This document shows positions 987-32,953 of a stretch of DNA of 33,303 nt, one piece after another. The DNA comes from an archaeon (GTDB lineage Archaea; Nanobdellota; Nanobdellia; Woesearchaeales; GW2011-AR9), in assembly GCA_020053615.1 (NCBI GenBank), contig JAGVMW010000114.1, positions 1 through 33,303 of the forward strand. The letters run 5' to 3'. The notes under the pieces were generated by a model. That model saw only the letters and a list, made by a program, of their open reading frames with translations. It made no database searches and had not been told where the DNA came from. Each line of letters opens with the position of its first letter. Positions within the stretch are counted from its first letter, which is position 1. The position numbers and the translations under genes are program-made.

Positions 987-1033
987 GTAACTACGCTTTA
1001 TGAATTACCAGATAAGCTTACATGTAAGTAACA

Positions 1034-1044: not shown

Positions 1045-1063
1045 GTTCAATTACCTACATCCT

Positions 1064-3391: not shown

Positions 3392-3400
3392 CACAACCTT

Positions 3401-6800: not shown

Positions 6801-6968
6801 ATATCTTAATTTATCAACAAGAACAACATCTTTATAGTCTGATCTTAAAGCAGAGCTTCCGCCAGGCAGATATTCCTCATTGCTTCCTCTTATTATATCA
6901 TAGTCTAAAGCCTTGAGAATATTCAAAACATTCTCTTCAACGTGTTCTTCAGTTATGAGGTGTTTCAT
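3801..6968 (-). CDS. hsdR: Type I restriction enzyme R subunit
   Basis: The N-terminal PD-(D/E)xK region reads [19 protein letters not shown]. Helicase motifs are HTQGSGKS and ADEAH. The C-terminal [12 protein letters not shown] matches a DUF3387-type tail. Confidence 0.95.
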
Positions 6969-6981
6969 CTTTATTCTTCCA

Positions 6982-7338
6982 TTATACTATTTTTAGTCTC
7001 TTTGCTTCTTTAATAAATCTTTTCTGTATATCAAGAATCATAGAGGGATTTTTACTATATTTTTCATTAATTCTATTTACATCGTCTTCGTGATCCACTA
7101 TACGACCACATTGAGAGCAAATCCACTTGGGAGTGCCCATTGGAGATGAAAAAAGAGATTCGAAACTTATCTGATTGCCATTTATATCAATAATTCTTCC
7201 ATGTGGGCAAATATTCTTCAGCTGATCAAGTTTTATTTTTCTTCTGTTTTCTAAAAATTTATTTATATCAAATTTAAAGCTAAATCTAATTGCAAAAGCA
7301 GCCACAATTATTAAAATCAGTGTTTCTAAAAATGCCAT
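6982..7338 (-). CDS. Small hypothetical protein with an N-terminal TM helix and a Cys/His cluster (CPHG...CSQCG)
   Basis: The ORF is packed between hsdS and hsdR and overlaps the hsdS end by 13 nt. It has a hydrophobic N-terminus and a zinc-ribbon-like CxH...CxxC pattern. Confidence 0.45.
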
Positions 7339-8645: not shown

Positions 8646-9007
8646 TTCTTTTTTGCCTTCTTAGCCCAAAATGTAGATTTATCTCCTGCATGAAATCGTA
8701 TCTCGCCTTCTGCGACCTCATCAGGGTTAATCTTCATCCATCCGTCACCATTTGCAGAGTCGCATTCATCACTGCCCTCAAAGGTGAAATCATAAATCAA
8801 GTCCCCATCACATTTCTTAAAATCCCCATACATTGAACCTTGCACCAATCCAAAATGAAACTCCCCACTGCCTATTTGTTCTATTCTGATGAATGCCTGC
8901 ACTTCTTCATTGACATAATCATTATCCCATTCACTCATTTTTGTAATGTGCCATGTTCCAATGAAATCTTTTTTTCCTATTTTCGTTCGTTTTATTTTAG
9001 TTTTCAT
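8642..9007 (-). CDS. Hypothetical protein embedded in the Type I R-M operon
   Basis: It has 4-nt overlaps with both neighbours. I recognise no motif. Confidence 0.55.
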   Translation of the reverse strand: MKTKIKRTKIGKKDFIGTWHITKMSEWDNDYVNEEVQAFIRIEQIGSGEFHFGLVQGSMYGDFKKCDGDLIYDFTFEGSDECDSANGDGWMKINPDEVAEGEIRFHAGDKSTFWAKKAKKK

Positions 9008-10038
9008 CCTAAATCATTAAGCCTCTTTTCTATATCTTCTTTAGATGGCAGATACTTCATGAGTTCTTTAGGAAGCAATTGCGTTATTTTATATGTAGCA
9101 ACTCCAATTGGCTTTTTGGCATCGCGCAAAGCGTACTCTACTGTTGTTCTTCTCTTTTCTTTGCAGATAATAATACCTATAGAAGCATTCTCCTCATCTA
9201 ATTTAATCCGGCTATCCAATGCCGAAAGATAGAACTGCATTTTTCCGGCATATTCCGGTTTGAACTTACCCACTTTTAATTCAATAGCGACCAAACTTCT
9301 TAATTTTCGATGATATAATAACAAATCAATAAAGTATTCTTCATCATCTACTTCCATCCTATATTGGCTTCCAACGAAACAGAAATAGTTGCCCATCTCT
9401 GATAGGAAATTTTTGATTCTACTAACAAGGGCATTTTCCATTTCTTTTTCAGAGTGTTCTTCTCCCAACTCCAAAAAATCAAAAGTATACTCGTCTTTGA
9501 CCGCTAATTTAGCTTGATTTTGATATTTAACCGGAACAGTTTGGTCAAAGTTTGTTTGGTTGAGAAGATATTTTTCATAAGACTTGTTCTCAATTTGATG
9601 GATTAGGACATCTTTAGTCCAGCCAAACTTTCTGGTCATCTTAATATAAAACTCCCGCTCTAAATCATCTTTGCATTTCTCCATAATGATTATGTTTTTT
9701 ACCCAGCTTATTTCTCGCACCAATGGTGCGAGTTTTTCACTAGCTTTGTAATTTAGGTAAAAATTTCTCATTCTCCAAAGGTTTGCTGAAGAAAAACCTC
9801 CTACGCTAGGATATTCCGCTTGTAAATCTTTAGCTAAAGTTTCTACGATAGATTTACCCCAATCCTGCTTCTCAACTATTTTCTTACCAATATCCCAATA
9901 CAAACCAATGAGTTCTTTATTTACGGCTTTGAGTGCGGAATATTGGGCTTCTCTGATTCTTTGTTTTATTTCAATAAGAAAATGCCGATAATCATCTTTG
10001 GTTAGGTTTTTATTCATGATTTTACCTCCACTTCCCAA
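9004..10038 (-). CDS. DUF1016/YhcG-family PD-(D/E)xK nuclease
   Basis: The N-terminal region reads IREAQYSALKAVNKELIGLYWDIGKKIVEKQ...GFSSANLWRMRNFY. The C-terminal FIDLLLYH...VAIELKVGKF is a D...ExK nuclease core. Confidence 0.85.
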   Translation of the reverse strand: MGSGGKIMNKNLTKDDYRHFLIEIKQRIREAQYSALKAVNKELIGLYWDIGKKIVEKQDWGKSIVETLAKDLQAEYPSVGGFSSANLWRMRNFYLNYKASEKLAPLVREISWVKNIIIMEKCKDDLEREFYIKMTRKFGWTKDVLIHQIENKSYEKYLLNQTNFDQTVPVKYQNQAKLAVKDEYTFDFLELGEEHSEKEMENALVSRIKNFLSEMGNYFCFVGSQYRMEVDDEEYFIDLLLYHRKLRSLVAIELKVGKFKPEYAGKMQFYLSALDSRIKLDEENASIGIIICKEKRRTTVEYALRDAKKPIGVATYKITQLLPKELMKYLPSKEDIEKRLNDLG

Positions 10039-10041
10039 TCT

Positions 10042-10497
10042 TCAGGAATCATTCCTTTCCAGAAGCTTTTCATGGCTCTGGAATTTTTTGGCAAAATAAT
10101 CTTTTTTTGCGCAGGCTTCCCGAATTTCATCAATATGCGCTATATGTTTGTTTTCGTTAAGCCATTCATAAAATAAATATACGCTGAAAATAGTAGAAAG
10201 CAGTTCTGATACTGTGTTAAATATCCACTTATCAATGCACCACCTGAAAAAAGTCTCTAAAGTATACCTATCAATATCCTGCGGGCTTTCTTCTTCATCT
10301 ATTGCTAGATAGTCGTTAATATACAATTCTACATTGTTAAGGTGCTTTTTTATTGTTTTTTTGCTGAGGTTCTTTCGTAATAAGTACTCTTCAAATTGGT
10401 GGAGCAGTGCGATATTTTCTTTTTGAATTTTTTCGTATTTTTCCATTGTCCTACCTTCATCCCTTCTTTCCCCAGTAATATGTATTTCTCTCATCAA
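10042..10497 (-). CDS. Hypothetical protein with weak resemblance to the tyrosine-recombinase N-terminal SAM-like (core-binding) domain
   Basis: FEEYLLRKNLSKKTIKKHLNNVELYINDYL has the pattern of a core-binding domain. The true start may be the ATG at 10446 (MEKYEKIQ). Confidence 0.4.
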   Translation of the reverse strand: MMREIHITGERRDEGRTMEKYEKIQKENIALLHQFEEYLLRKNLSKKTIKKHLNNVELYINDYLAIDEEESPQDIDRYTLETFFRWCIDKWIFNTVSELLSTIFSVYLFYEWLNENKHIAHIDEIREACAKKDYFAKKFQSHEKLLERNDS

Positions 10498-10498
10498 A

Positions 10499-11989
10499 CT
10501 ACTTCCTTACACGCCCCCGATGTTTTAATCTCCCTCTCTGAATTACAACATATCCCCCGGTTTTCTTAGAGCCTACTTTTGTAATCCTTCCTTGATGTAT
10601 TAATTCTTGCAAGTAGCGCTTTAATGTTCCAAGGGGCATCTTTGTATCCTGTTCAATATCTGCCCGTTTACAGTTAGGATTTAGCTCGATAAAGTGAAAG
10701 ATTGTCTCAGATTTTATCGGCTCACTTATCGGCTCACTTATCGGCTCATTTAGTGGCTCAAATTTAGGATGAATCTTCAATCTTGTAATAAACTGGACTC
10801 TATCATCATCCGTAATAAATACTGGTGCAGGTGAACCATTATTTTGCATAGCACTTCTTATTTTCCTAAATCCGGTATTCTTTCCCTCTGTGAGCTTTAA
10901 TTCTTTTAAAAAATCACCAATTCTCCTATTTCTATACCGTTTAGAGATTACGATAGCATCATTAATATTATCTTTATTCAATGGAGGAAGAGGCCCAGGA
11001 TAACTGATTATATCAATTCGGTCAAGTTCGATTCTTACTTCAATCGGTGCGTCTATCTCATAGCTTTTATGATAAACAGCATTAACTAATGCTTCTTCAA
11101 TTGCAGTATAAGGATATGAAAAAAATCTTATTGCCTCTGCTTTAGTTGGCACTTTTATTACTTGTTCTTGTATTGCCGAATTTTTTATGTACTGTAAAGC
11201 AGAAATGATTTGATTTTGGAGGGGCCCGCTAAATCTTTCTTCTCTGAATTTATCACCGATTTTATCTTGGAATATGGTAACCTCAATCCAAGGGGTTTTA
11301 ATATATTTTTCTGGCTCATTGGAAAAAAATAATAGCCCTACGTTTTTAGGCTTCATCATTTCGTTAGGTCCTTCAATAATATTGAGGCTCTTGCAAAGCT
11401 CTTCAAAACTTAATGCTTTTGCACTTAATCCTGAATGAATATTCTGCAAATATGATTTAATCAACTCTACATTCAAGTCATTTAGCGATGCTTTCTGGTT
11501 TATTTGATCATCATAAGGGATCTGGTTAGACATTCCAATTAATTCTTTTTCTTCTTCTTTATTTGCAACAACTGTTGATGACGAATGACGAATATAGTAT
11601 TTATATTCTGATGCAACCCCAAACGATTTTGGTGCTTTGTACGGTCTTGCAGGGCCACCGGGGCAATATAAAATTATGAGGTTTTTAGAATTATATTTTG
11701 TGGGCTCAACAATGGGATAATAAGGCCATTGAATTTTGTTAGATAATTCTACTATTTTTTTCAAGATAAAATCTATCTGATTTTCGGCAATTCCAATTAT
11801 TCTTTTTTTATCGTCAACACCGATTATAATGTAGCCCCCTCCCCAATTATTAAAATCATTTGCAAAAGCACACATAGTATGAACTATTGATTCAGGATTA
11901 AACCCTTCTTTTAATTCAATTCTTTCTGATTCAATTAAATGTTCTTCAATTAATCGTTTGGCGTTTATTGGCAGCAGCATTTTATTCAT
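10499..11989 (-). CDS. AlbA_2 (Schlafen-like) + HATPase_c_4 + C-terminal wHTH protein, often annotated as a RecG-like putative DNA-binding regulator
   Basis: The AlbA_2 region reads ESERIELKEGFN...CAFANDFNNWGGGYIIIGVDD. The ATPase-like region reads EEALVNAVYHKSYE...RNRRIGDFLKELKLTEGKNTGFRKI. The C-terminal wHTH reads LGTLKRYLQELIHQGRITKVG. Confidence 0.8.
   Translation of the reverse strand: MNKMLLPINAKRLIEEHLIESERIELKEGFNPESIVHTMCAFANDFNNWGGGYIIIGVDDKKRIIGIAENQIDFILKKIVELSNKIQWPYYPIVEPTKYNSKNLIILYCPGGPARPYKAPKSFGVASEYKYYIRHSSSTVVANKEEEKELIGMSNQIPYDDQINQKASLNDLNVELIKSYLQNIHSGLSAKALSFEELCKSLNIIEGPNEMMKPKNVGLLFFSNEPEKYIKTPWIEVTIFQDKIGDKFREERFSGPLQNQIISALQYIKNSAIQEQVIKVPTKAEAIRFFSYPYTAIEEALVNAVYHKSYEIDAPIEVRIELDRIDIISYPGPLPPLNKDNINDAIVISKRYRNRRIGDFLKELKLTEGKNTGFRKIRSAMQNNGSPAPVFITDDDRVQFITRLKIHPKFEPLNEPISEPISEPIKSETIFHFIELNPNCKRADIEQDTKMPLGTLKRYLQELIHQGRITKVGSKKTGGYVVIQRGRLKHRGRVRK
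10714..10761. repeat. In-frame 12-bp tandem repeat: two perfect and two degenerate units of TTATCGGCTCAC
   Basis: Units lie at 10714-10725, 10726-10737, 10738-10749 and 10750-10761. They encode the EPISEPISEPI linker of the AlbA_2 protein. Confidence 0.85.
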
Positions 11990-11997
11990 TCCTTTTT

Positions 11998-13521
11998 TTA
12001 TATCTTAAACCCAATCCCTTCCAGATTCTTCTTTATTTCAACATCCAACTTCTGCCCTTCTTTCATCTGTTCAGATAATTCAGCAGTTAATCGTTTCATC
12101 TTCTCTTCAAATGCTTCGTCGTCTTCTACTTCTTCTTGGATTCCAACATATCTTCCAGGAGTCAGGATAAAATTATTCTTCTCAACCTCTTCCAATTTAG
12201 CGGATTTGCAAAGGCCAGTAACATCTTCATATTTGAGCTTGTTTTCTCCTCTCCATGCGTGATAAGTGGAAGATATTTTCTTAACATCCTCATCAGTTAG
12301 TTCTCTATGTCTTCGGTCAATCATCACACCCATATTTCTGGCATCAATAAACAAGATTTGCCCTCTTCTGTCCCTAAACGAATGGTCTTTTTTATCTCGT
12401 GTAACAAACCACAAGCAGGCAGGAATTCCAGTATTGTAGAATAACTGGGCAGGTAATGCTACCATGCAATCAACAATATCAGAAGTAATCATATCCTTCC
12501 TTATTTCGCCCTCATTAGAAGTATTTGATGACATTGAGCCATTTGCCAGAACAAAGCCAGCTACGCCAGTAGGATTCAAATGATGAATAAAATGCTGAAC
12601 CCAGGCAAAATTGGCATTATTTTTTGGAGGCACTCCAAACTTCCATCTTACATCTTCCTGCAATAATTCGCCATTCCAATCTGAATCATTAAACGGAGGA
12701 TTGGCAAGAATAAAATCTGCTTTCAAATCTTTATGCTGGTCATCATGGAAAGCATCGCCCCATTTGATATTTGAGTCAATCCCTCTGATAGCCATATTCA
12801 TCTTACAAAGCTTCCATGTTGTCTGGTTGCTTTCTTGTCCATAAACCGAAATGTCTTTTATTTTTCCGCCATGAGCCTCTACAAACTTTTCGGATTGAAC
12901 AAACATTCCACCTGAACCACAGCAGGGATCAAATATTCTTCCTTTGTATGGCTCTAACATCTCAGTTAATAGTTTTACAATAGAACGAGGAGTATAGAAC
13001 TGCCCGCCTTTCTTTCCTTCAGCAGAGGCAAATTCACCTAAAAAATATTCATAGACTCTTCCAAGAATGTCTTTACTACGATTCTCTTTATCACCAAGTC
13101 CAATCGTTCCGATTAAATCAATCAATTCCCCTAATCTTTGCTTGTTCAATCCTGGACGAGCATAATTCTTTGGCAAAACTCCTTTAAGTGAGGGATTGTC
13201 TCTTTCAATAATATCCATAGCTTCATCAAGAAATTTTCCAACTTCTGGCTTTTTTGCATTGGCTTGAAGATGCTCCCATCTTGCTACTTTTGGGACAAAG
13301 AAAATTCTCCGCGAAACATACTCATCAACATCTTCTGGATCTGAATCTTTCTCTTTTTTCAGTTTTTCATAAACTTCAGTAAAAGCATCAGAAATATACT
13401 TTAAGAAAATCAAACCTAAAACAACGTGCTTATATTCAGCAGCATCCATATTGCTTCTTAGCTTATCAGCAGAAGACCATAATTTTTGTTCAAACCCTAA
13501 ATTAGCACCGTTATTTGACAT
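11998..13521 (-). CDS. hsdM: Type I R-M N6-adenine DNA methyltransferase subunit
   Basis: It has motif [12 protein letters not shown], motif [10 protein letters not shown] and an HsdM N-terminal domain ([33 protein letters not shown]). Confidence 0.95.
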
Positions 13522-13663
13522 TTTCTCGCCCCCTCTTATCTAACTCTGCTTCCATGCACTTCTCAAACTGACGAGATACTATCCAGCCTTCTTTCTTGCA
13601 TATCTCTCTATACTTATCGTAAAGTTCAGAGTTTACTTTCAATGTGATGTTTTTTGTTTTCAT
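13511..13663 (-). CDS. Ribbon-helix-helix (CopG/Arc-like) small protein RHH-1, translationally coupled to hsdM
   Basis: [41 protein letters not shown] has a beta-strand plus two-helix pattern. The ATG at 13663 is preceded by GGTGGGGTGA. The track ORF (to 13693) begins at a GTG and is probably over-extended. A paralog lies at 32630-32779. Confidence 0.7.
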
Positions 13664-13711
13664 TTCACCCCACCTGATAAGAAATACTTGCACATACTTA
13701 TAAATATTACT

Positions 13712-13904
13712 GTTTTCTCGCCACTAACTACTGAATACTGAAACTCCCACCCTACCCACCCAAAGCGTCTTCTTTTTGTAAAAAGAAGCAAAAACAAAAC
13801 GGAATTCCCCCCTACGAACGACTAAACTAATGTCTGCTTCGCAGTAATTGATGTTAAAGTAAGTAAAAACTACGGCACCTATCTGATTTTCGGCAGTAAG
13901 AAAA
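13712..13904 (+). repeat. Leader-type (S2) repeat upstream of RHH-1/hsdM; the inverted partner of 3566-3800
   Basis: It contains GTTTTCTCGCC (13712-13722), ACGGAATTCCCCCC (13799-13812), TTAAAGTAAGTAAAAA (13854-13869) and GGCAGTAAGAAAA (13892-13904). In addition, 13799-13853 is near-identical to 32898-32953. Confidence 0.8.
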
Positions 13905-13934
13905 CTTCTCCGCTTTTTTTCTGCGGAAAAAAAT

Positions 13935-13984
13935 GCTCGACCCCGTTGCACTCTCGCTACGCTCGGGTCGGCTAACAGCGGAAG
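13935..13984 (+). repeat. Junction element J4, left half (GC-rich block plus CGGGTCGGCTAACAGCGGAAG), interrupted by the IS
   Basis: CCGTTGCACTCTCGCTACGCTCGGGTCGGCTAACAG aligns with J1, J3 and J9. The expected CATAY-GTTAWAY half is found only on the far side of the IS. Confidence 0.7.
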
Positions 13985-15541
13985 CCGTCCCGCAATCCCC
14001 TCCCAAAACACAATTTAAATCTTCATTCTTCTCAGAAAAAAATAAAATCCCTCATTTAACACTCCACTGCTCCTTTCATCCTCCAAATCTTCATTAAATT
14101 ATGAGCAATACAGGCCAAATTAAACTCAATCTTCACCTTTTCCTTGCCTCGAAGCAGGAATTCCCTGAATCCCAAGTTCTGCTTGATATTCCCATACACC
14201 GGCTCGACCGTAATTTTCCGCAAAGAATACACTTTCTTTGCTTCATCTGTTTTCATCTTGTCTCTCATCCTCAGCCGTTCACGGAAGTAGAACGGCACAT
14301 CTTTTTTCTTCCCTAATTTATCATTATAATAACTCAATATCTTCATGCCGTTTTTCCTCGTGTACTGAAACTTGAAGTAAAATCGATGTTTTCCGACGAT
14401 TAATTCATCTCTCTTGGCATCATACTCATACTGGTCGTGATTCAAACTTTGCTCCTTGCCGTCAAACTCTTGTGCTTGTGCACGAGAAGGCACATATAAA
14501 TCAATCTTATTTTCCTCCGCAAATTTAATGTTCCCCGCGTCACTATAACCGCAGTCAACTCCCACCTTTGTGTCATCTTTCAAAGTTATATTCTCTTTAA
14601 CATTCTTCATCTGCGGGATGAACTGGTGAACATCATGCTTGTCCTGGCAGATCTCATTGGCAATAATTATCTGATTCCTGTCGACAGTTAGCTGAGCATT
14701 GTAGCTCAGCTCGGAATGCCTTTTCTTGGTCTGCATGGCTCTGGCTTCAGGATCAGAAAGGGAGACTTTCTTCAACCCATACTTTTCCAGTTCATTTTTA
14801 GCTTGTTCAATATTCTTTTTGACCTTCTTCTTATCTTCTGCCTCATGGAATTCCCTAACTATTTTCTTAAGGTCTCTTTTGTCAATTCCAGTAAGCCCTT
14901 CTTCCCTATCGTCGAAGAGTTGGTCTTCCAGTTCATCCAGAGCTATATCTTCTTTGATCATCTTTTCGATAGCTTGGTCCAGTTTGTCCAACCCTTTCTT
15001 ATCCATATATCTCTTGCTACCAGCGTAGGCCTTTAAGGTTGTTCCATCGATGCTGATAAAGCTGAGGTCAGTAAGGTTGTGCCTGGCGGCGATTTCCACC
15101 GTTTTTTTGAATGCATCTTTGACAAATTCAGGATGTTCCATCCTGAAGCGGTTTATCGTCCTGAAATCTGGATGGACTTTCTCTGCCAGATACATGAAAA
15201 TAAAGTTTTCTCTGGTTGCCCTGGCCAATCTTCTGGAAGATCTGGTTTTGCAAAGCATCCCGTAAACCAAGATTTTCATGATAATTCTCGGGTGATAGGC
15301 AGGATGCCCTGCGCCTTCGTAGATCAAATCAAAGTCGGAGAAATCTAACTCATCAACATAGTTTTCCACTAGGAAACAGATGTGGTCTTTAGGAATGATT
15401 TCTGTTATCGACGGTGGCAGAAGCCAATTCTGGTCTTGGTAAGAATTTATGTATGCCATATTGCACCTCATTTTATTGATGATAAGATTATAACTTGTCG
15501 ACGGGAGAACTAGTATTTATATTTTGTGAATTATGGGACGG
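13985..15541 (-). mobile_element. IS element (IS1182/IS5-like) inserted into a junction element
   Basis: It encodes a single DDE transposase. The ends are imperfectly inverted: CCGTCCCGCAATCC...AAAACACAATTTAAAT at 13985 onward, and the reverse complement of 15500-15541 reads CCGTCCCATAATTC..AAAATATAAATAC. The boundaries could instead be 13992/15534 if CCGTCCC/GGGACGG belongs to the target hairpin. No clear target-site duplication was seen. Confidence 0.6.
14056..15471 (-). CDS. DDE transposase, IS1182/IS5 superfamily
   Basis: The N-terminal DUF772-type region reads HPAYHPRIIMKILVYGMLCKTRSSRRLARATRENFIFMYLA. The C-terminal region reads VEPVYGNIKQNLGFREFLLRGKEKVKIEFNLACIAHNLMKI. Confidence 0.85.
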   Translation of the reverse strand: MRCNMAYINSYQDQNWLLPPSITEIIPKDHICFLVENYVDELDFSDFDLIYEGAGHPAYHPRIIMKILVYGMLCKTRSSRRLARATRENFIFMYLAEKVHPDFRTINRFRMEHPEFVKDAFKKTVEIAARHNLTDLSFISIDGTTLKAYAGSKRYMDKKGLDKLDQAIEKMIKEDIALDELEDQLFDDREEGLTGIDKRDLKKIVREFHEAEDKKKVKKNIEQAKNELEKYGLKKVSLSDPEARAMQTKKRHSELSYNAQLTVDRNQIIIANEICQDKHDVHQFIPQMKNVKENITLKDDTKVGVDCGYSDAGNIKFAEENKIDLYVPSRAQAQEFDGKEQSLNHDQYEYDAKRDELIVGKHRFYFKFQYTRKNGMKILSYYNDKLGKKKDVPFYFRERLRMRDKMKTDEAKKVYSLRKITVEPVYGNIKQNLGFREFLLRGKEKVKIEFNLACIAHNLMKIWRMKGAVEC

Positions 15542-15565
15542 TCTGAGGGGTCCCATATGTTATAT
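15542..15565 (+). repeat. Junction element J4, right half (TCTGAGGGGTCCCATAT-GTTATAT)
   Basis: The core CATATGTTATAT at 15554-15565 completes the junction whose left half ends at 13984. Confidence 0.65.
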
Positions 15566-15685
15566 GACATTTTCTGTCGTTGTAACTGTACTCTACGCTA
15601 ACGCTAAACTCTAAGGACTTTATGATTGACGCTTCCGTGACAGCTAACTTTAAAACTACGAGTGGGGGCTAACTTAACGGAAAGA

Positions 15686-15695
15686 TTTATATACA
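15686..15695 (+). promoter_or_regulatory. TATA-box-like element (TTTATATACA)
   Basis: It lies about 25-30 nt upstream of the ATG at 15720, with no SD. Confidence 0.45.
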
Positions 15696-15719
15696 TAATA
15701 TGATGTATCTAAGTACATA

Positions 15720-16295
15720 ATGAAAACTGAACTCAAAATCCTTAAGAACTTTATAGAAACTAAAAAACCAAAAACGATTAGAGAGATCGCTCAACAAATT
15801 AAATCTGATTACAGAATAACCCATATTGCCGTGCAAAGACTTATTGAAAAAAATGCTCTTAAAGTCCAAACTGTGGGGAAAAGTTCTTTATGCTCGCTGA
15901 ATGAGAAATACTTTGGAAGTTATATCTACGAAACTGAAAACGAAAGAAAAGAAGAGATTCTCAAAAATAAGAATATAAACCAACTTTACAAAGAAATTAT
16001 GTCCAAAGTAAAAACAGGTTCTTTTATCCTGCTTTTATTTGGTTCTTACGCAAAAAACAAGCAGACAAAAGTGTCAGATATTGATCTTCTATTCATCTCA
16101 AATGAAAGTGGCTTTGAAAATAGAATTTCAGACATTCTTTCATTACTCCCATTAAAGACTCATGCTCTGGTATTTACAGAAGAAGAATTTATCCGGATGA
16201 AAGACTCAAAAAAGTCAAATGTAATCCAAGAAGCAATAGAAAGTAATATAATACTGTATGGGATTGAAGCTTATTATAGGATAAAAAATGCTTGA
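15720..16295 (+). CDS. wHTH + minimal nucleotidyltransferase (MNT) protein
   Basis: It carries the GSYAKNKQTKVSDIDLLF NTase signature (GS...DxD). The N-terminal wHTH reads IREIAQQIKSDYRITHIAVQRLIEKNAL. Confidence 0.75.
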   Translation: MKTELKILKNFIETKKPKTIREIAQQIKSDYRITHIAVQRLIEKNALKVQTVGKSSLCSLNEKYFGSYIYETENERKEEILKNKNINQLYKEIMSKVKTGSFILLLFGSYAKNKQTKVSDIDLLFISNESGFENRISDILSLLPLKTHALVFTEEEFIRMKDSKKSNVIQEAIESNIILYGIEAYYRIKNA

Positions 16296-16824
16296 CGAAA
16301 AACGAATTAAAGAAGCGGAATCAAACGTGAGGCAGTATCTACAAGATAATCTGCTTAAGAAACAGACAGATGAGACGGCTAGAGCAATGTATATTGAAAA
16401 TGCTGATCTTTCACTGGAGACGGCTAAGAGACTTCTTGCTTTAGAAAGTAAAGATTATCAGCCTTATCTCTGGGTAATTGTCCCCTCTTACTATTCAATG
16501 TATTATATTGCCAATGCCATCCTTTTAAAATTAGGGTATAAAGTAGGAGATAAAATAAGTCATAAAGTAACTGCCGATGCCATTATTGTTTTTGTCAGAA
16601 ATAAACTCAAGAAAAGCCTCCTAGAAGAATATGAGAATGCTCAGGCAGACGCACTGGAATTAATGTCACAGCGAGCCGATGTTTTATTGAAATCCCTTGA
16701 CGAAGAACGACAAAAACGGTCAAAATTTCAATATCAAATGGATGAGCAGGTGAAACGAGGAAAAGCAATAACTTCTCTGGAACGGGCTAAAGAATTTGTG
16801 TTTGAGATGAAGAAGTTGTTATAG
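16288..16824 (+). CDS. HEPN-like (UPF0332-type) partner of the MNT
   Basis: It overlaps the MNT gene by 8 nt. The protein looks all-helical, and YYSMYYIANAILLKLGYKVGDKISHKVT resembles archaeal HEPN/UPF0332 proteins. I did not see a clean Rx4-6H motif. Confidence 0.5.
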   Translation: MLDEKRIKEAESNVRQYLQDNLLKKQTDETARAMYIENADLSLETAKRLLALESKDYQPYLWVIVPSYYSMYYIANAILLKLGYKVGDKISHKVTADAIIVFVRNKLKKSLLEEYENAQADALELMSQRADVLLKSLDEERQKRSKFQYQMDEQVKRGKAITSLERAKEFVFEMKKLL

Positions 16825-17394
16825 GTAAATTTTTTTATTTTAAAGAGATTTCCCACAGTTCAGGCTCATGATCCAGGAACGCCAAACGCCGTTGGCGCGA
16901 TTTCCATCGCCAAAGCCACTGAAGTATTAGAATCAATTGGTTATGATCGTATTCACAAATATGAATCTGAATTAGTTAGAACTGCATTCAGAGGATTAAA
17001 GCAAACTGATGGCGTAACAGTTTATGTTTCTGAATCAGAATTAGGTAGCGTCATTCCTTTTGATATTACAGGGACAGATAGCCGATTAACTGCTGAAATC
17101 CTAAGAGATGATTATGGGATTGGCGTACGAGCAGGTTCATTCTGTACTTATGAATTCATGAGAAAAATCAAAAATATTTCTGATGAACAAGACAAAAAAA
17201 TCTTAGAAGAAATTGATAGAGGCATCACAAGAAGTATTCCCGGAGTTGTTAGGGCTAGTTTTGGCTTAGTGAATAATCAAGAAGATGTTACAAGATTAAT
17301 TTCTGCTGTTAATGAAATCGCTCACAATGGAATAGAACATTATTTCGAAATATACAACCAAGACAATACCACCGGATTGTGGACAAAGAGGTAA
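16825..17394 (+). pseudogene. 5'-truncated class V aminotransferase / cysteine desulfurase-like gene (C-terminal third only)
   Basis: The frame is open from the stop at 16822-16824. From about 16861 it reads QAHDPGTPNAVGAISIAKATEVL... The xxGTPN motif normally sits about two thirds of the way into SufS/NifS-type enzymes. The PLP-lysine region is absent, and there is no ATG before 17158. Confidence 0.65.
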
Positions 17395-17397
17395 AAA

Positions 17398-18096
17398 ATG
17401 GCAACAAACGTTAAACCTAATGAATTGAATTACGACCATTACGAAACAAAAAAATATGACGATGATATTGTTCGCTCTATTCCAGGACATGAGGAACTTC
17501 ATAGACACATAGACCAAATTATTCAAAGAGATTATATTTCAAGAGGAAAAGTTAAAGTCTTAGAATTAGGAGTTGGAACGGGATTAACAGCAGAAAGAAT
17601 ATTAGGACAAATGCCAAATGCGGAATATACAGCCGTTGATTTCTCTGAGCAAATGCTCGCAGGAGCAAGAAGACGTTTATCTCAATATAATGTAACATTT
17701 GTAAATGGTGATTATTCACAAATTGATCTTCCAAATGATAACGACCTCGTAGTTTCTATTGTAGGAATACACCACCAAAAGACCAATAAAGATAAAAAAT
17801 CTCTTTTTCAAAAAATATACCATTCCATAGCTGAAGATGGTTCTTTCATTTTTGGAGATTTGGTTACATATAAAGACAGAACAGAAGCAGCTTTAAATGA
17901 AGCAAGACATTACCATCATCTTGTTGAACACGCAGAAAATGAAGAATCATTAAGAGAATGGGCGCACCATCACAAATTCTTAAACAAACTTGCTCCTTTA
18001 GAAAACCAAGTAAAATGGCTTAGAGAAGTTGGTTTTAAAAAAGTAAAATTAGTCTACCAGAAATTCAATACTGCTTTAATCTATGCAACAAAATAA
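17398..18096 (+). CDS. Class I SAM-dependent methyltransferase
   Basis: Motif I is VLELGVGTGLTAERIL. The N-terminal YDDDIVRSIPGHEELHRHI resembles CmoA-like enzymes. VVSIVGIHH is post-motif II. Confidence 0.8.
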   Translation: MATNVKPNELNYDHYETKKYDDDIVRSIPGHEELHRHIDQIIQRDYISRGKVKVLELGVGTGLTAERILGQMPNAEYTAVDFSEQMLAGARRRLSQYNVTFVNGDYSQIDLPNDNDLVVSIVGIHHQKTNKDKKSLFQKIYHSIAEDGSFIFGDLVTYKDRTEAALNEARHYHHLVEHAENEESLREWAHHHKFLNKLAPLENQVKWLREVGFKKVKLVYQKFNTALIYATK

Positions 18097-18098
18097 TG

Positions 18099-18950
18099 TC
18101 AATTCTCTTGTTTTGATTTCTTCTTTTCCAATCTTTTAACTGATTCAGCTTGCTCTACATAATTTTCAGAAGTAATAACTCTTCTGCCACTTTTTGTTTC
18201 CAAATCTCTTCTGGCTCTTCCGGCAACAGCTCCACCTTCTTGAGCAGCTTTTTTGCCCTCATCAAATCCCTCTACATTTTTATTCTTTGTAATTTCTGTT
18301 GTAGCTGCCTCACCAAGCATGGAAAAGATAAGCTCCAAGTCTGTCATGTGGTCGCGTAAATTTTCCCGTTTCAGTCCCTTTAACTCTTTGTACTCGGACG
18401 GCGTTAAACCAAAAGTCGCTTTGGATATTTCTGCGGTGAGAATTGCATATTCCCTTTCAGTCTTTATAGCTCGCTTATCCCATTCGCCGGTTAATTCATC
18501 CCTTATTGCTATCCCCCTTACCCTTCGCTCAATCCATTCATCAGAGTATCCTTTCTTTTTGTACAATTCCCTCATCCTTTTTTGAGCAAGCTCCGGGTTT
18601 TCTATCTCTTGTACTCGTTCATAGCCAACCTTTGCCAGCCATCTCTTAAATGGTTCTGCTTTCGGAGAGGGAATGGATTGAACAATCCTCAAGAGAGTTT
18701 CAGTATTGGCACAGTCCGTTTCATAAAACTTACCATCGGAAGACGGTAACTTCAGTTGTACGATTTTTTCGTACAACTCAAATCCTTCATCTTTGAGCTT
18801 AATTTTTAGATCAGACCAATATCTTCTAGGAATAGAGCTGCCAGTTAAGACTGTTACAATATCTATTATGGAGAAGAACCATTCTTCATTATGCCACAAT
18901 CTTCGTATGCCTTTTCCCTGAAAAACAATTAATGATGTTTCCGGATCCAT
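18099..18950 (-). CDS. Bro-N domain / DinD-like (DNA-damage-inducible protein D family) protein
   Basis: The N-terminal region reads FQGKGIRRLWHNEEWFFSIIDIVTVLTGS (Bro-N pattern). The C-terminal ENLRDHMTDLELIFSMLGEAATTEI resembles DinD. Confidence 0.65.
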   Translation of the reverse strand: MDPETSLIVFQGKGIRRLWHNEEWFFSIIDIVTVLTGSSIPRRYWSDLKIKLKDEGFELYEKIVQLKLPSSDGKFYETDCANTETLLRIVQSIPSPKAEPFKRWLAKVGYERVQEIENPELAQKRMRELYKKKGYSDEWIERRVRGIAIRDELTGEWDKRAIKTEREYAILTAEISKATFGLTPSEYKELKGLKRENLRDHMTDLELIFSMLGEAATTEITKNKNVEGFDEGKKAAQEGGAVAGRARRDLETKSGRRVITSENYVEQAESVKRLEKKKSKQEN

Positions 18951-19226
18951 TCTAATAGTTATTAAATAGACATTTCTTTAAATACTTTGTCCAAACCTGT
19001 CCAGTGACCAGTGGCTCTCTAAATGGAAACAACGGCTCTTAAATCCCCCTAACTTTTGTCTCTCTTCTCTCATATTCAAATAATCGAACTTTTGACGAAC
19101 TACGGTGGCACCTAAAGTCTCGGGAATGTTAAAACTTCTTCGGTTTAATGTCCTTCGGACTTAAACCTCGACCACGCTGCGCTTTCCCTACGATTTTTAT
19201 ATTCCCTTCGGTCATTAAAAATCTTC

Positions 19227-19395
19227 GGTCGGGTCGGCAAACAGGGGTTTACAGGAATTTTACTCGGCTCGTAAAATTCCCAAATGTCAATCCAGCTCTC
19301 AAAAATTTCTCAGCTCTGATTTTTGTGGGCTACCTCAAAAATCGAGGAGAAATTTTTGGAGGGATTGCCACTTCTGTAAACCCCATACGTTAAAC
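19227..19395 (+). repeat. Junction element copy A2: 166-nt structured repeat plus core CATAC-GTTAAAC
   Basis: It matches 118-283 except at 19325-19336. The closing base pair of the apical hairpin is swapped relative to copy A1 (G19325/C19336 versus C216/G227). A TTTTTATATT box at 19193-19202 lies about 25-30 nt upstream. Confidence 0.8.
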
Positions 19396-19399
19396 TCAA

Positions 19400-19434
19400 T
19401 AAAATTTCTGTTAGACTAAACTTAAGGGGTGCTT
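19400..19434. repeat. Left arm of the inverted repeat flanking the GIY-YIG/Mrr/Zn-ribbon block
   Basis: TAAAATTTCTGTTAG (19400-19414) and GGGGTGCTT (19426-19434) are exact reverse complements of 20913-20927 and 20900-20908. Confidence 0.85.
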
Positions 19435-19477
19435 ATTTTCTAATGGTTTGTAAGATAGCTTTGTAAAGGTCGAAAGA

Positions 19478-19487
19478 TTTTTATAGG
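19478..19487 (+). promoter_or_regulatory. TATA-box-like element (TTTTTATAGG)
   Basis: It lies about 25-30 nt upstream of the ATG at 19510. Confidence 0.4.
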
Positions 19488-19509
19488 TAGTTAAGAGTTA
19501 ATATATAAA

Positions 19510-20052
19510 ATGGAAATTAAACAAATATTAGATAAAATTGAATCAAATAAAAGCATACAACAATTTCCAAAAACCTCTGGAATTTATGTAATGTATGCAA
19601 AAAATAACATTATTTTTGATTTTATTACAATTAATAAAGGAGAAATAATATATATTGGCAAAAGTGAAAGTTCATTATCTGATAGAAAAACAAAACAACA
19701 TTTTAGTTCTGAAAGTACTGGTCGGTCAACTGTGAGAAGAAGTTTAGGTGCTATCCTAAAAAAAGAATTTGATATAAAATGTTTTTTAAGAGGTAAAGGA
19801 AAATCTAAAAATGATTCTAATTGTTATATATTTGATAAGGAAAGTGAAATCAGATTAACTAATTGGATGAATGAAAATATTTCCATGTCTTTTTTTGTCA
19901 CAAATAATCCAGAAGAAATAGAAGTTAGGTTAATTGCAAAATATAATCCTATTCTAAATCTAAAAGAAGCAGAACATAATTTTATAACACATATCAAAGA
20001 TTTAAGAACTAAATGTAAAGATGAAGCTGAACAAAATGGTGTCTTGAAATGA
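19510..20052 (+). CDS. GIY-YIG nuclease-domain protein
   Basis: SGIYVMYAKNN...EIIYIGKSESSLSDR fits GIY-x(n)-YIG, followed by a conserved Arg region (RSTVRRSLG). Confidence 0.6.
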   Translation: MEIKQILDKIESNKSIQQFPKTSGIYVMYAKNNIIFDFITINKGEIIYIGKSESSLSDRKTKQHFSSESTGRSTVRRSLGAILKKEFDIKCFLRGKGKSKNDSNCYIFDKESEIRLTNWMNENISMSFFVTNNPEEIEVRLIAKYNPILNLKEAEHNFITHIKDLRTKCKDEAEQNGVLK

Positions 20053-20723
20053 ATCCTAAAGAATATGAAGAATATATTGGCGAATATTTCAAAAATAAAG
20101 GGTATGATATTAAAGTAACTTCTTTTACAAATGATTATGGTGTTGATTGTTTTGCTTCAAAAGGAAAAGAAAAGATTGCAGTACAAGTAAAAATGTATGG
20201 TGAGGGTATTAGACCTGTAAATAGAAAAATGATGATGGAATTATATGGTGCAATGCACTATTTTGACTGCAATAAAGCAAAACTTGTAACAAATGGCAGA
20301 ATATTAGATGATGCCAAAGAAGTTGCAGATAAGTTAGGTATTGAAATATTATATGTCGAAGCAGTTGAAAATCATAATTCTAAAACGAAAATAGATGAAA
20401 CTTCTTTTGAATTTATCTGGGAAAGATATATCTTGCCATTAAAAGGAAAAACATTAACTAGAACTAATGGAGATACAAATATAATAAAAGATGTGGATTG
20501 GAGCGGAATAAAAAGAATAACTTCAAATGGCAACACTGCAAAAATAGATATTGAGATTTTCAAACAAGTTATTAACCACTTAAGGAAAAATGGAGAAATT
20601 TCTCGCAAAGAAATCAATGATGATTATTCAGGTAGAGCTTCATCTGGAATATGCTTAATATTATCACAAGTTCCTTTTATTCAATATCACAATAGTCCTT
20701 CAAAATTAATTTGGAGAAAATAA
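20049..20723 (+). CDS. Mrr-cat type restriction endonuclease domain protein with an unknown C-terminal domain
   Basis: YEEYIGEYFKNKGYDIKVTSFTNDYGVDCFASKGKEKIAVQVKMY fits the D...(Q/E)xK PD-(D/E)xK core of Mrr_cat. The start overlaps the upstream stop as ATGA. Confidence 0.65.
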   Translation: MNPKEYEEYIGEYFKNKGYDIKVTSFTNDYGVDCFASKGKEKIAVQVKMYGEGIRPVNRKMMMELYGAMHYFDCNKAKLVTNGRILDDAKEVADKLGIEILYVEAVENHNSKTKIDETSFEFIWERYILPLKGKTLTRTNGDTNIIKDVDWSGIKRITSNGNTAKIDIEIFKQVINHLRKNGEISRKEINDDYSGRASSGICLILSQVPFIQYHNSPSKLIWRK

Positions 20724-20724
20724 A

Positions 20725-20901
20725 ATGGTTCAAATTCCTTGTCAAAATTGCGGAAAGATGTATCCTGAAGAATGGTCTTGGTATAGCTGTAATAAATGTG
20801 ATTATAGAATTTGTCAATCTTGCATTTCCAAACATAAAGGTAAATATGGAAGCGGTTTCAAATGTAGTCAATGTACATTTGGACAAATGAAACGAAAATA
20901 A
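20725..20901 (+). CDS. 58-aa double zinc-ribbon protein (four CxxC pairs); not in the supplied ORF track
   Basis: My manual translation gives MVQIPCQNCGKMYPEEWSWYSCNKCDYRICQSCISKHKGKYGSGFKCSQCTFGQMKRK. The ATG lies 1 nt after the upstream stop. Confidence 0.5.
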   Translation: MVQIPCQNCGKMYPEEWSWYSCNKCDYRICQSCISKHKGKYGSGFKCSQCTFGQMKRK

Positions 20902-20927
20902 GCACCCCACGACTAACAGAAATTTTA
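20900..20927. repeat. Right arm of the inverted repeat flanking the GIY-YIG/Mrr/Zn-ribbon block
   Basis: AAGCACCCC (20900-20908) and CTAACAGAAATTTTA (20913-20927) pair with the left arm. The arm overlaps the Zn-ribbon stop codon. Confidence 0.85.
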
Positions 20928-20950
20928 CTTTGAATTTTTGCCTTCGACAT

Positions 20951-21000
20951 CGTTGCACTAAAATTCAATCCTAACGGAGAGTTTAACAGCGATGTTATAC
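20951..21000 (+). repeat. Junction element J7 (CGTTGCACT ... TTTAACAGCGAT-GTTATAC)
   Basis: CGTTGCACT (20951-20959) matches the S1 block of J3 and J4. AACAGCG plus GTTATAC (20985-21000) match the core. It has the same orientation as the other junctions. Confidence 0.6.
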
Positions 21001-21175: not shown

Positions 21176-21238
21176 GGGGGAGTTCTAAACTTTCTGACAA
21201 CTAACTTTGACGAGGGGGGAGTTCCGTGACGACGAGAA
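21176..21238 (+). repeat. S2-type block (GGGGGAGTTCTAAAC ... GGGGGGAGTTCCGTGACGACGAGAA) next to the 3' end of the large minus-strand block
   Basis: It resembles 3738-3800 (GGGGGGAATTCCGTAACGA...GCGAGAAAAC). It is also the inverse, with one mismatch, of ACGGAATTCCCCC at 32898-32910. Confidence 0.55.
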
Positions 21239-28113: not shown

Positions 28114-28938
28114 TTATTTTTTAAACAGTTCTCTTATATCTTTACTTCCAACTAGCTTTACGTTGTTAAAATGTTGGGGGTATTCTTCTCTAGTTAAAGT
28201 TATTAAATAATTAACCATGTACCATTTCAATCCATTATTCTCACTTTTCGCATTTGCTAAATGAATATAAGCATTTCTTGATTCCCTAATAATGTCTAAA
28301 CAATTATGTTTGTTAATATAACTATACTTTTTTAAGTATCTTTTGCCTTTTGTACCAACTAAAGCCGGAGTTTTATCGATTTTATATTTTTGAATAAAAG
28401 AAAGATAACCTTCCTTAAGAGATTTATTAGACGCATGGAATAGTTTAATACATTCATGAAATTTGAATGTTTCTGAGGAGAAATTTGAACTAATATCTTT
28501 CTTTGCATCATAATAAATCTTATTTAATTTGGATTGGGTTAATTGTGAGATTTTATTTAATTTATCCAATTTCATGGTGTATTTCTGAGAAAATTTGTTT
28601 GACAACATTTTGTTCAAACCAGTAAAAACACCATTTTTTCTGTCAAGCCCAACACACCTATCGGTTTTGTTTATAATGAAATTTCTTTTAAGTAAGATGA
28701 GTTTGACTAAGTGTTCTGCAGTTGAACCAATTAAATTCATTTTCTGAAGATGATAAGCTCTTGATTGGTAAAATTTCTGTTTTTGTCCTTGATTATAGGA
28801 AACAACTTTTTTATTTAACAAAATTTTGACTAATTTAAGATTTTCTTTGATTAAAGCTATATAAGTATCTACTACTATTGGTTGATATAAAAGTATATCA
28901 AATTTATCTTTCGAAATTTCCCATTGTTTTAGTTTCAT
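28114..28938 (-). CDS. Hypothetical helical protein with an RNxxxH motif, possibly HEPN (Abi_2/AbiD-F-like)
   Basis: IIRESRNAYIHLANA contains Rx4H in the RNxxxH form seen in several HEPN RNases. An upstream helix reads GSTAEHLVKLILLK. The call rests on the motif alone. Confidence 0.4.
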   Translation of the reverse strand: MKLKQWEISKDKFDILLYQPIVVDTYIALIKENLKLVKILLNKKVVSYNQGQKQKFYQSRAYHLQKMNLIGSTAEHLVKLILLKRNFIINKTDRCVGLDRKNGVFTGLNKMLSNKFSQKYTMKLDKLNKISQLTQSKLNKIYYDAKKDISSNFSSETFKFHECIKLFHASNKSLKEGYLSFIQKYKIDKTPALVGTKGKRYLKKYSYINKHNCLDIIRESRNAYIHLANAKSENNGLKWYMVNYLITLTREEYPQHFNNVKLVGSKDIRELFKK

Positions 28939-32672: not shown

Positions 32673-32779
32673 TTCTCAAACTGACGAGAAACTATCCAGC
32701 CTTCTTTTTTGCATAACTCCCTATAGGTATCATACAATTTTGAATTAACTTTCAAAGTGATATTCTTACTCTCTTCCAT
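32630..32779 (-). CDS. Ribbon-helix-helix small protein RHH-2, a paralog of 13511-13663; not in the supplied ORF track
   Basis: My manual translation gives [49 protein letters not shown]. In my alignment 40 of 44 core residues are identical to RHH-1. The gene is preceded by GAGGGAATGA. Confidence 0.7.
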   Translation of the reverse strand: MEESKNITLKVNSKLYDTYRELCKKEGWIVSRQFEKCMEAELEKRGREK

Positions 32780-32849
32780 TATCATTCCCTCTAACTAGAT
32801 TAATAATAAATAACTGCACATACTTATAAAGATTACTATGCTGAAACTC

Positions 32850-32953
32850 TTCTCGCCCCCAACGACTTAAACTGAACTCCCTACTAACAACAAAACTACG
32901 GAATTCCCCCACGACGAACGACTAAAATAATGTCTGCTTCGCAGTAATTGATT
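32850..32953 (+). repeat. Leader-type (S2) repeat upstream of RHH-2 and the methyltransferase
   Basis: TTCTCGCCCCC (32850-32860) and ACGGAATTCCCCC...CGAACGACTAAAATAATGTCTGCTTCGCAGTAATTGAT (32898-32953) are near-identical to 13799-13853. Confidence 0.8.

Follow-up and report, generated by a model that had tools for sequence, protein, structure and literature searches.

A GIY-YIG/Mrr/zinc-ribbon block with nested inverted arms, probably one cassette of an integron-like array in a DPANN archaeon

What do the exact inverted sequences at both ends of a small archaeal gene block do, if they are not the ends of a transposon? This question is raised by a 33,303-nucleotide (nt) stretch of DNA from a DPANN (Woesearchaeota-type) archaeon (contig JAGVMW010000114.1; hereafter the window), in which three genes, for a GIY-YIG nuclease-family protein, an Mrr-type restriction endonuclease-family protein and a cysteine-rich zinc-ribbon-like protein, are bracketed by such inverted arms. 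An earlier reading made from the letters of this DNA (hereafter the sequence-only reading) had taken the arms for the termini of a mobile unit. We consider it probable that the block is instead one gene cassette (positions 19390-20994) of an integron-like array. This degree of confidence applies to our favored reading as a whole, namely that the block is a cassette, that it closes into a circle, that its arms are parts of a split recombination module, and that these arms pair when the DNA is single-stranded.

Inverted arms and junction cores of the block

The left outer arm TAAAATTTCTGTTAG (19400-19414), which follows directly on the bases TCAA, is the exact reverse complement of the right outer arm CTAACAGAAATTTTA (20913-20927), as the sequence-only reading had stated. 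The same reading gave a second arm of 9 nt. This match is indeed exact, but GGGGTGCTT represents only the first 9 nt of an exact 15-mer, wherein the left inner arm GGGGTGCTTATTTTC (19426-19440) complements the right inner arm GAAAATAAGCACCCC (20894-20908). All four arms are given on the + strand, as are the other features of the block. The right inner arm extends over the final two codons and TAA stop (20899-20901) of the zinc-ribbon open reading frame (ORF), in agreement with the claim that a right arm overlaps the last stop codon. Outer and inner arms are separated by 11 nt on the left versus 4 nt on the right. Weaker complementarity continues outward from the arms (AAACTCAA versus TTGAATTT) and inward, where it amounts to 81% over 26 nt.

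Chance does not readily explain these matches. Local alignment of the left end with the reverse complement of the right end yields a score of 49, compared to a mean of 17.5 and a maximum of 30 among 2000 shuffles, and thus the view that the inverted match is unlikely by chance holds. Exact inverted 13-mers at any distance already occur in the whole window at about twice the background (52 versus ~24), and therefore an isolated inverted match of 13 or 14 nt means little. A pair of colinear 15-mers at the two ends of the same unit goes far beyond what chance would produce. At 28768-28781 the outer arm has a third copy, a 14-mer, which falls within the window-wide background of 13- to 14-mers and was dropped.

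Where the sequence-only reading erred was in regarding the arms as termini. The left outer arm does start at the fifth base past a junction core, GTTAAAC (19389-19395), and both left arms do lie upstream of a TATA-like box (GAAAGATTTTTATAGG, 19472-19487), as had been noted. However, the unit itself is 1605 nt long, beginning at TTAAAC (19390) and ending with the G of the following core (20994), which places the outer arms 5 nt and 67 nt inward of its ends. The inferred crossover in the upstream core is G|TT, and the homology between two copies of the preceding junction element (copies A and B, described below) ends inside this core. The downstream core GTTATAC (20994-21000) is a hybrid, with its G derived from this cassette and TTATAC from the next unit. 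A direct repeat, GTTAAACTCAATA/GTTATACTCAATA, that was first taken for chance represents the two junction cores.

The unit also carries an inverse core (R''), GAGTTTAAC (20979-20987), which exactly complements GTTAAACTC, a G followed by the first eight bases of the cassette itself. Because the inverse core exactly complements the cassette's own start, we infer that the unit closes into a circle at G|TT. Its heptamer GTTTAAC (20981-20987), which matches the start TTAAAC (19390-19395), occurs only once in the window, and inverse core plus core are predicted to form a hairpin of 9-10 base pairs (bp) in the circular junction.

The same pattern recurs along the window and beyond it. GTT-containing cores are present at 280, 928, 3559, 15559, 19389, 20994 and 33159, and cores at related loci read GTTAGGC, GTTTGCC, GTTAAGT and GTTAGTT; only GTT is invariant, and GTTATAC departs from the consensus GTTRRRY. 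Three window units pair an inverse core with their own start, a NUDIX cassette and the three-gene cassette that follows it (TTATAC/GTATAAC in each) and the block (TTAAAC/GTTTAAC), and these heptamers are otherwise absent from the 33 kb. Counting related loci as well, the inverse core is the complement of the unit's own 5' core in seven of ten cassettes, which in circular form creates a perfect 9-bp stem. In one homolog of the NUDIX cassette (L124) the pair has changed in a compensatory manner, from TTATAC with GTATAAC to TTATGC with GCATAAC, and the alignment of five homologous NUDIX cassettes residing in unrelated flanks begins exactly at the core TT. By analogy, this is the logic by which integron cassettes circularize with a crossover at G|TT. 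The spacing between inverse core and core is 6, 6, 12, 12, 14 and ~150 nt across cassettes.

The junction element in front of the block belongs to the preceding unit and is of the attC type (copy B, 19227-19395, + strand). It consists of an inverse core GGCAAAC (19236-19242), a stem GGGGTTTACAG/CTGTAAACCCC (19244-19254/19374-19384), the bases ATAC and then the core GTTAAAC. The left flank 19227-19392 is 96% identical to 118-283 (copy A), which precedes another cassette; the element is ~170 nt long, ends in CATACGTTAWAC and is followed in both copies by a gene unit with a box resembling a B recognition element and TATA box (BRE/TATA). A 24-mer of this element is found in contigs of metagenome-assembled genomes of Candidatus Woesearchaeota and Nanoarchaeia. 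Both long elements possess inner stems. As a separate observation, the long form (19244-19384, and also 135-275) resembles a short site, GGCAAAC-A-GGGG/CCCC-ATAC-GTT, which is free of any insert at locus L045, as if a ~130-nt branched hairpin with the sub-hairpins GGAATTTTAC/GTAAAATTCC and CAAAAATTTCTC/GAGAAATTTTTG had been inserted. As the stretch from inverse core to core also varies among copies of one NUDIX cassette, this middle part seems exchangeable.

Private arm pairs, their evolution and their folding

Exact nested arm pairs, detected as exact matches of >=12-13 nt, are present in four of the six window units, with two to five pairs per unit. The NUDIX cassette (281-928, + strand), whose inverse core at 915-921 matches its own start, carries five pairs of 14-17 nt (291-304/841-854, 327-343/774-790, 396-410/743-757, 446-462/690-706 and 463-478/623-638), four of which reach into its hydrolase ORF (348-851). 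The following three-gene cassette (929-3559, + strand; inverse core at 3540-3546) has two (947-959/3453-3465 and 973-986/3401-3414). A type I restriction-modification (R-M) cassette of 12 kb (3560-15559, - strand), which comprises hsdR/S/M, DUF1016 and Schlafen-like genes and carries an insertion sequence (IS) in its attC hairpin, has four (3570-3582/13892-13904, 3716-3731/13854-13869, 3738-3751/13799-12 and 3787-3799/13521-13533). The block is the fourth such unit.

When the left and right ends of the six units are compared in a 6x6 matrix, left ends pair only with their own right ends (79, 27, 54 and 30 nt exact), and neighbors across a junction score 0. The idea that the arms are private to a cassette therefore stands, but its extension to every cassette is true for only four of the six units. 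For the AbiE (MNT/HEPN) block, which the sequence-only reading had credited with arms of its own, we find only 15709-15723 against ~17139-17153, a 15-mer with one mismatch whose score is within noise. Within the unit 15559-19389 we also note an open frame lacking a start (16850-17160) that, judged by eye, resembles the C-terminal part of a class V aminotransferase/cysteine desulfurase (...DYGIGVRAGSFCTYEF...). It is probably a gene fragment, and this arm-less unit looks decayed or composite.

The sole off-diagonal signal in the matrix links the R-M unit and a DISARM-like unit, because the two have paralogous right modules. The right-end modules at 13522-13852 and 32635-32952 are 92-95% identical in blocks, a small upstream ORF included. 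The DISARM-like arm at 32897-32910 consequently pairs exactly with the R-M left arm (3739-3752) and with one mismatch to its own left end (21214-21227), which suggests module exchange between these cassettes.

Similar architectures exist elsewhere. When metagenomes were scanned with GGTCGGGTCGGCAAACAG, an 18-mer conserved in the junction element, 103 matches resulted, of which 11 are true loci and most others are chance matches in G+C-rich genes. One to three nested exact arm pairs, starting a few nt past a core, are present on ten related DPANN contigs, namely the genome locus L010, the loci L053, L068, L080, L083, L084 and L107, and the more distant L117 and L119/L120, and no exact partner was found for the first-cassette arm TCGCGGGGGCGCC of L085. 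Altogether, the arm architecture is shared by at least 12 independent cassettes whose arm sequences are unrelated. The units span 0.65-12 kb, contain one to seven genes on either strand and have BRE/TATA-like boxes.

The ends of these units form families of conserved blocks into which variable arms are set. Those of our block group with L080, having TCAA|arm at the left end and arm'|CTyGA...ATTTTTNCCTTCG...GGAGA-inverse core at the right end. Despite these shared end modules the arm sequences of the two cassettes are mutually unrelated, with TAAAATTTCTGTTAG occupying the same anchor as the L080 arm TTGAGAAAAAGACC. By its position, the left inner arm GGGGTGCTTATTTTC appears homologous to the GGGG... 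arm 3 of other cassettes. A local hairpin, TTGAATTTT...AAAATTCAA (20931-20970, + strand), lies within a conserved 3' module that is homologous to that of L080 and partly to that of L002. The conserved blocks between arms 1 and 2 have one orientation in all six cassettes compared; the modules are orientation-fixed, whereas cargo genes face either way.

Covariation is evident when arms are placed relative to conserved flanks. Arm 2, anchored in this manner, is complementary to its own partner at 14-16 of 16 positions in five of six cassettes, compared to a mean of 5.7 of 16 for cross pairs, and the arm 2 sequences are only ~29% identical to one another. The L107 cassette has an unrelated HAD-like cargo and shares its termini with the window NUDIX cassette, and their outer arms (TTGCT-AATTT-GCCC/GGGC-AAATT-AGCAA in the window versus TTGCT-GAACT-GCCC/GGGC-AGTTC-AGCAA in L107) differ by three compensatory double changes.

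Arms also change more slowly than their surroundings. Among four NUDIX homologs (84-93% protein identity), 2.5-11.4% of arm positions have changed versus 9.6-20.9% elsewhere (each p<0.01). Pooled over the family, the numbers are 35 of 618 arm positions (5.7%) versus 264 of 1869 elsewhere (14.1%), a rate ~2.5x slower, for which p=3e-9 is optimistic because the homologs are not phylogenetically independent. The difference is seen at third codon positions as well. One compensatory change, C-G to T-A, occurs in the NUDIX arms, and arm a has been lost in L124 and L125.

Folding with DNA energy parameters points to the same own-end specificity. The circular junction formed by the block's own ends has a predicted energy of -41.3 kcal/mol (z=-11.7), and two other own-end junctions give -50.4 (z=-7.9) and -25.9 (z=-4.8) kcal/mol. 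By contrast, these right ends fold no better than shuffles when they are joined to the following unit in array order. The predicted circular fold of the block contains an inner-arm stem, an outer-arm stem and a three-way junction with the hairpin at 20931-20970 and the inverse-core/core hairpin. In this model the arms would form a 30-bp stem beneath the crossover hairpin.

Possible roles of the arms

Because the arms are sub-terminal in a circle-closing cassette and are cassette-specific, we interpret them as split halves of a cassette-private recombination module rather than as transposon termini. We envision that the cassette closes into a circle by crossover at or next to G|TT, which would yield the circular junction ...GAGTTTAACAGCGATG|TTAAACTCAATAAAATTTCTG and leave the empty site ...CCCCATACG|TTATACTCAAT. 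The arms would pair when the cassette is single-stranded. In the excised circle, the long arm stem would then close a multi-branch loop and expose the small inverse-core/core hairpin with the crossover point. While the cassette is integrated in the array, pairing of the arms would loop out the cargo and draw the two flanking crossover points together. In both settings it would favor precise excision and re-insertion of a unit's own cassette. Most likely, therefore, the arms serve to fold single-stranded cassette DNA for recombination. Pairing at the level of DNA is suggested by the fixed orientation of modules whose genes face either way, and by the location of left arms upstream of promoter-like boxes.

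A candidate enzyme, an IntI/XerA-like recombinase, is found beside related arrays. At L010, L085, L117 and L119/L120 a recombinase of ~269 amino acids (aa) is encoded at the array edge, about 90-150 nt from the first core and arm; at L010 and L085 the gene, for a protein of 268-269 aa, is divergent from that core and arm at a distance of 90-100 nt. At L117 and L119/L120 the gene marks the border between housekeeping genes and defense or variable cargo, and the first unit displays a core, four bases and an arm whose exact partner is 3.5-4.1 kb away. The best solved-structure match for the recombinases of L010, L085 and L084 is VchIntIA/IntI4 (2a3v), matched in two pieces. IntI4 residues 173-241 (~69) are replaced by ~24 aa and the TIGR02249 match is likewise split, which implies that the array recombinases lack the additional domain specific to IntI. 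Their best NCBIfam model is XerA_Arch. Given that more than 1000 close homologs exist across DPANN, the family may be this lineage's general Xer-type enzyme.

Sites resembling attI were noticed next to the recombinase gene (L117, flipped, upstream 150-200; L085, ~2930-2975; L010, 3195-3246). They share a common grammar, in which a 9-bp inverted repeat (e.g. ATTAAGCGA-N9-TCGCTTAAT) is followed by 4 nt and a GTT core, and this arrangement may be a recombinase binding site of the platform. L010 also contains an 18-nt exact inverted match (3124-3141/5583-5600), one copy of which falls in the opening codons of the recombinase gene (minus strand) and the other in the 3' portion of the first-cassette ORF. 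Both copies encode NAKELQ, and the match crosses the attI-like site and thus falls outside the within-cassette rule.

More tentatively, we raise the possibility that these loci belong to a distinct, DPANN-wide integron-like system. Such a system would combine an XerA/IntI-like recombinase lacking the additional domain with large, self-expressed and mostly defense-related cassettes, whose minimal hairpin sites are accompanied by private nested 'zipper' arms that fold the whole single-stranded cassette.

Several observations weigh against our reading. First, the window encodes no recombinase, and neither a recombinase, an attI site nor an excised circle is seen for this contig. Second, inverse core and core are only 6 nt apart in the block, which leaves no space for the L box of a canonical attC. 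Third, the stretch from inverse core to core differs between copies of the same NUDIX cassette, and so the crossover can be placed only approximately. Fourth, two of the six window units lack exact arms, and the DISARM-like unit keeps a single, mismatched pair. Mismatches in L083 arm 2 and DISARM arm 3 also occur, and the perfection of the arms is overstated because detection demanded exact matches. Fifth, the three genes occur at L001/L002 with 90% nucleotide identity over 19505-20969, a homology that starts 5 nt before the first ATG, in the absence of the left arm, promoter region, inverse core and core. Finally, mismatches in diverged NUDIX arms, read on the + strand, are G.T/T.G in 13 cases versus A.C/C.A in 6, a bias that would also fit a + strand RNA.

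The fifth point runs counter to the expectation, expressed in the sequence-only reading, that the arms travel with the three-gene unit. L001/L002 retain the right-arm region with changes at 5 of its 30 positions, and an ISL3 fragment adjoins the start of the homology. At L003-L005 (78% identity) the promoter region is kept, the Mrr gene is truncated and no comparable arms exist. On the basis of these features, both groups of copies look fixed or decayed outside arrays. To treat them as a refutation would be too strict, because they have neither core nor inverse core. Covariation, own-end specificity and slower arm evolution are stronger tests, and these support cassette-specific paired ends.

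Of the alternatives, one holds that the arms act in RNA, such that read-through transcripts of the array fold and use 13-18-bp helices for processing, stabilization or circularization, as do archaeal rRNA processing stems. The G.T bias noted above would fit this model, complementarity with covariation is expected of an RNA helix, and NUDIX arms c-e lie within the mRNA of that cassette. Nevertheless, we regard an RNA role as unlikely. Given the fixed modules, the + strand is antisense to the genes of the type I R-M unit and of the second unit at L010, and the block's left arms as well as NUDIX arms a and b are upstream of promoter-like boxes. Furthermore, the internal loop of 11 nt versus 4 nt is not a bulge-helix-bulge geometry, Rfam returned no match, and the arms go together with cores and inverse cores, a grammar of DNA recombination.

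We assign a similarly low probability to the idea that the units exploit Xer at a dif-like site next to xerA, in the manner of integrative mobile elements exploiting Xer (IMEX) or pdif modules. In that case exchange would occur in duplex DNA at a 9-6-9 palindrome and the arms would be accessory or idle. Perfect 9-6-9 sites do arise in the circular forms (GAGTTTAAC-AGCGAT-GTTAAACTC for the block and GCGTATAAC-ACATAC-GTTATACGC for the NUDIX cassette). The recombinase's XerA_Arch score, missing additional domain, abundance in DPANN and position at the boundary of housekeeping genes and variable cargo also fit. Yet a spacer that ranges from 6 to ~150 nt would be intolerable for a rigid duplex core site, and central regions differ between junctions. 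Moreover, arms cannot pair in duplex DNA and are nonetheless under selection, and the top solved-structure match is IntI4 rather than XerA.

It is quite improbable that the arms are a functionless by-product, either of a one-off inverted duplication of the 3' end or of a split palindromic junction repeat whose remnants they would be. The right-arm region is ancestral to the cargo, being present at L002, where the left arm is absent, and hence the left copy could be secondary. However, this explanation does not account for an architecture that recurs in at least 12 independent cassettes with unrelated arms, nor for compensatory changes and arm positions that evolve ~2.5x more slowly, third codon positions included.

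Least probable of all is that the arms represent the terminal inverted repeats by which a non-autonomous (MITE- or MIC-like) transposon is moved by a transposase in trans, or the repeats of an invertible segment; exact inverted repeats do surround a 1.5-kb unit lacking its own recombinase, and ISs are nearby (the DDE transposase of 14056-15471 and the ISL3 fragment at L001/L002), but no single transposase or invertase could recognize arms that are private to each cassette, the arms are nested as two to five pairs within a core-defined unit and partly inside ORFs, no target site is duplicated (the flanks ...CTCAA|arm and arm|CTTTGA... are weakly complementary instead), and the blocks between arms never appear inverted in the six cassettes compared.

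Cargo genes and relation to known systems

The gene content given by the sequence-only reading is borne out by profile searches. A GIY-YIG nuclease-family gene (19510-20052, 180 aa; PF20815 GIY_YIG_2, E=3.5e-25) is followed by an Mrr-type restriction endonuclease-family gene (20049-20723, 224 aa; PF04471 Mrr_cat, E=5e-21), for which PADLOC reports weak matches to the ZorD nuclease domain and to PDC-S02. The third is a Cys-rich, zinc-ribbon-like ORF (20725-20901, 58 aa) with a weak C1_2 match under the curated cut-off, and this ORF is kept in L002. Exact-protein look-ups of the GIY-YIG and Mrr proteins gave no match, and a scan of viral contigs with the Mrr protein revealed no relatives. The cargo of the block has a G+C content of 25-30%, compared to 40-45% in junction modules and immediate flanks.

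The putative BRE/TATA-like promoter GAAAGATTTTTATAGG (19472-19487, + strand) was read from the sequence ~25 nt before the ATG, in a stretch that is homologous in L003-L005. Similar boxes ~25 nt before the ATG are present in several cassettes, including GGAAAGATTTATATAC (15681-15696) and GATACATTTATAAAAAT (311-327). These boxes suggest leaderless, self-promoted transcription of cassettes, unlike the classical promoterless cassettes of integrons. Scans for sigma-70 promoters and intrinsic terminators, whose models are unsuited to an archaeon, were at background.

Judged by Pfam and PADLOC, the window is a cellular defense island. It includes the type I R-M system with DUF1016 and Schlafen-like genes (3801-13521), the MNT/HEPN pair, a methyltransferase, a Bro-N gene, a PD-(D/E)XK gene, a PLD-SNF2 helicase and a type IIG methylase. 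The IS with its DDE transposase (DDE_Tnp_1-type; ORF 14056-15471) sits inside the stem-loop of the attC-like site of the R-M cassette (13969-13995 and 15520-15565), where it splits the stem into GCCGTCCC (left) and GGGACGGTC (right), and an IS110-family transposase adjoins a cassette junction at L121. Insertion of ISs into attC sites is known for integrons (the IS1111-attC group).

Other origins for the block were considered and rejected. Matches to PHROG families first suggested a phage, and megablast and blastn against 50,697 phage records gave nothing relevant. A structured RNA gene or an intron hosting the ORFs was set aside after Rfam produced no match at gathering thresholds and no tRNAs were found. 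Insertion into a gene and a free-standing GIY-YIG homing endonuclease cassette were likewise dismissed, as four ways of deleting the block restore no ORF and the flanks are long non-coding stretches and junction modules.

Outside arrays, the L002 copy of the three genes (2760-4224) is surrounded by genes for a Toprim protein, the ISL3 fragment, a SurA-like peptidyl-prolyl isomerase, PhoH, a HerA-like and a NucS-like protein. NUDIX cargo is recorded under source names from DPANN archaea, CPR bacteria, Bathyarchaeia and Actinomycetia. Both the three-gene and the NUDIX cargo may thus have moved very widely, perhaps even between domains.

The array as such is of a known kind, namely the archaeal integron-like cassette clusters. 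Integrons are already described from archaea, Nanoarchaeota/DPANN among them; most are attC clusters that lack an integrase, and the published archaeal IntIs have the IntI additional domain (Ghaly et al., 2022; PMC9668308). In common with integrons, the arrays have tandem GTT-core junctions, an inverse core that complements the unit's own first bases, and a crossover at G|TT. Their sites are conserved in structure over sequence, with a stem and variable loop in elements A and B. The tyrosine recombinase gene faces away from the first cassette at L010 and L085, and the cargo includes defense and toxin-antitoxin genes.

The differences are equally specific. In the canonical attC model only 6 nt lie on the 5' side of the cassette, whereas in the arrays complementarity extends 15-50 nt or more past the crossover into the 5' end, nested deep and reaching into ORFs. 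Many array sites have inverse core and core 6-14 nt apart and thus no L box, and the associated recombinases lack the IntI additional domain. Instead of mostly short, promoterless single ORFs in one orientation, the cassettes are multi-gene units of up to 12 kb, in either orientation and with their own promoter-like boxes. In the literature we searched, we did not find cassette-private, nested long-range arms that straddle the crossover, are conserved even in ORFs and evolve more slowly than their surroundings, nor minimal sites too short for an L box, recombinases missing the additional domain, or large self-expressed defense cassettes.

Three other systems invite comparison. IMEX form arrays at dif (in CTX, for example, the single-stranded genome folds into a hairpin attP), and pdif modules populate Acinetobacter plasmids. 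Both resemble our arrays in using an Xer-family recombinase, which for the arrays is a candidate, and in stacking in tandem at one locus. They have short palindromic sites with ~9-11-bp arms and a 6-nt center, whose counterparts in the arrays are the circular forms of the block and the NUDIX cassette, other cassettes having 12, 14 or ~150 nt between these arms. In CTX the site is created by a folded single strand, as we propose for the arrays. However, array cores share one direct orientation and pdif sites alternate, the array spacer is variable, long-range private arms are added, and dif function is only putative here. Miniature inverted-repeat transposable elements and mobile insertion cassettes likewise have inverted repeats near the ends of a transposase-free cargo unit, but array repeats are private, nested and sub-terminal, create no target duplication and are tied to a GTT core plus inverse core. 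Archaeal rRNA processing stems (bulge-helix-bulge, EndA) also bracket a kilobase-scale unit by long-range pairing, but the arms described here lack that motif, lie partly outside predicted transcripts and are oriented independently of genes.

If our reading is correct, cassette mobility in DPANN uses a non-textbook site, in which a tiny crossover hairpin is clamped by cassette-specific long-range stems. The single-stranded DNA structure of a mobile element would then constrain coding sequence, through nucleotide-level purifying selection on pairing segments within ORFs. In practical terms, own-end complementarity together with an own-start inverse core would provide a signature that delimits mobile cassettes, including R-M and DISARM-like systems of 10-12 kb, in genomes where standard integron finders would show at most scattered attC sites. 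The arrays would also bear on the origin of integrons from Xer-like systems and on how cassettes gain recombination sites. The additional domain has been proposed to be what made recombination of single strands possible for integron integrases (Escudero et al., 2016; PMC4792948). A system that folds its cassettes and has recombinases without this domain could be an intermediate, or a parallel, between Xer/dif recombination and integrons.

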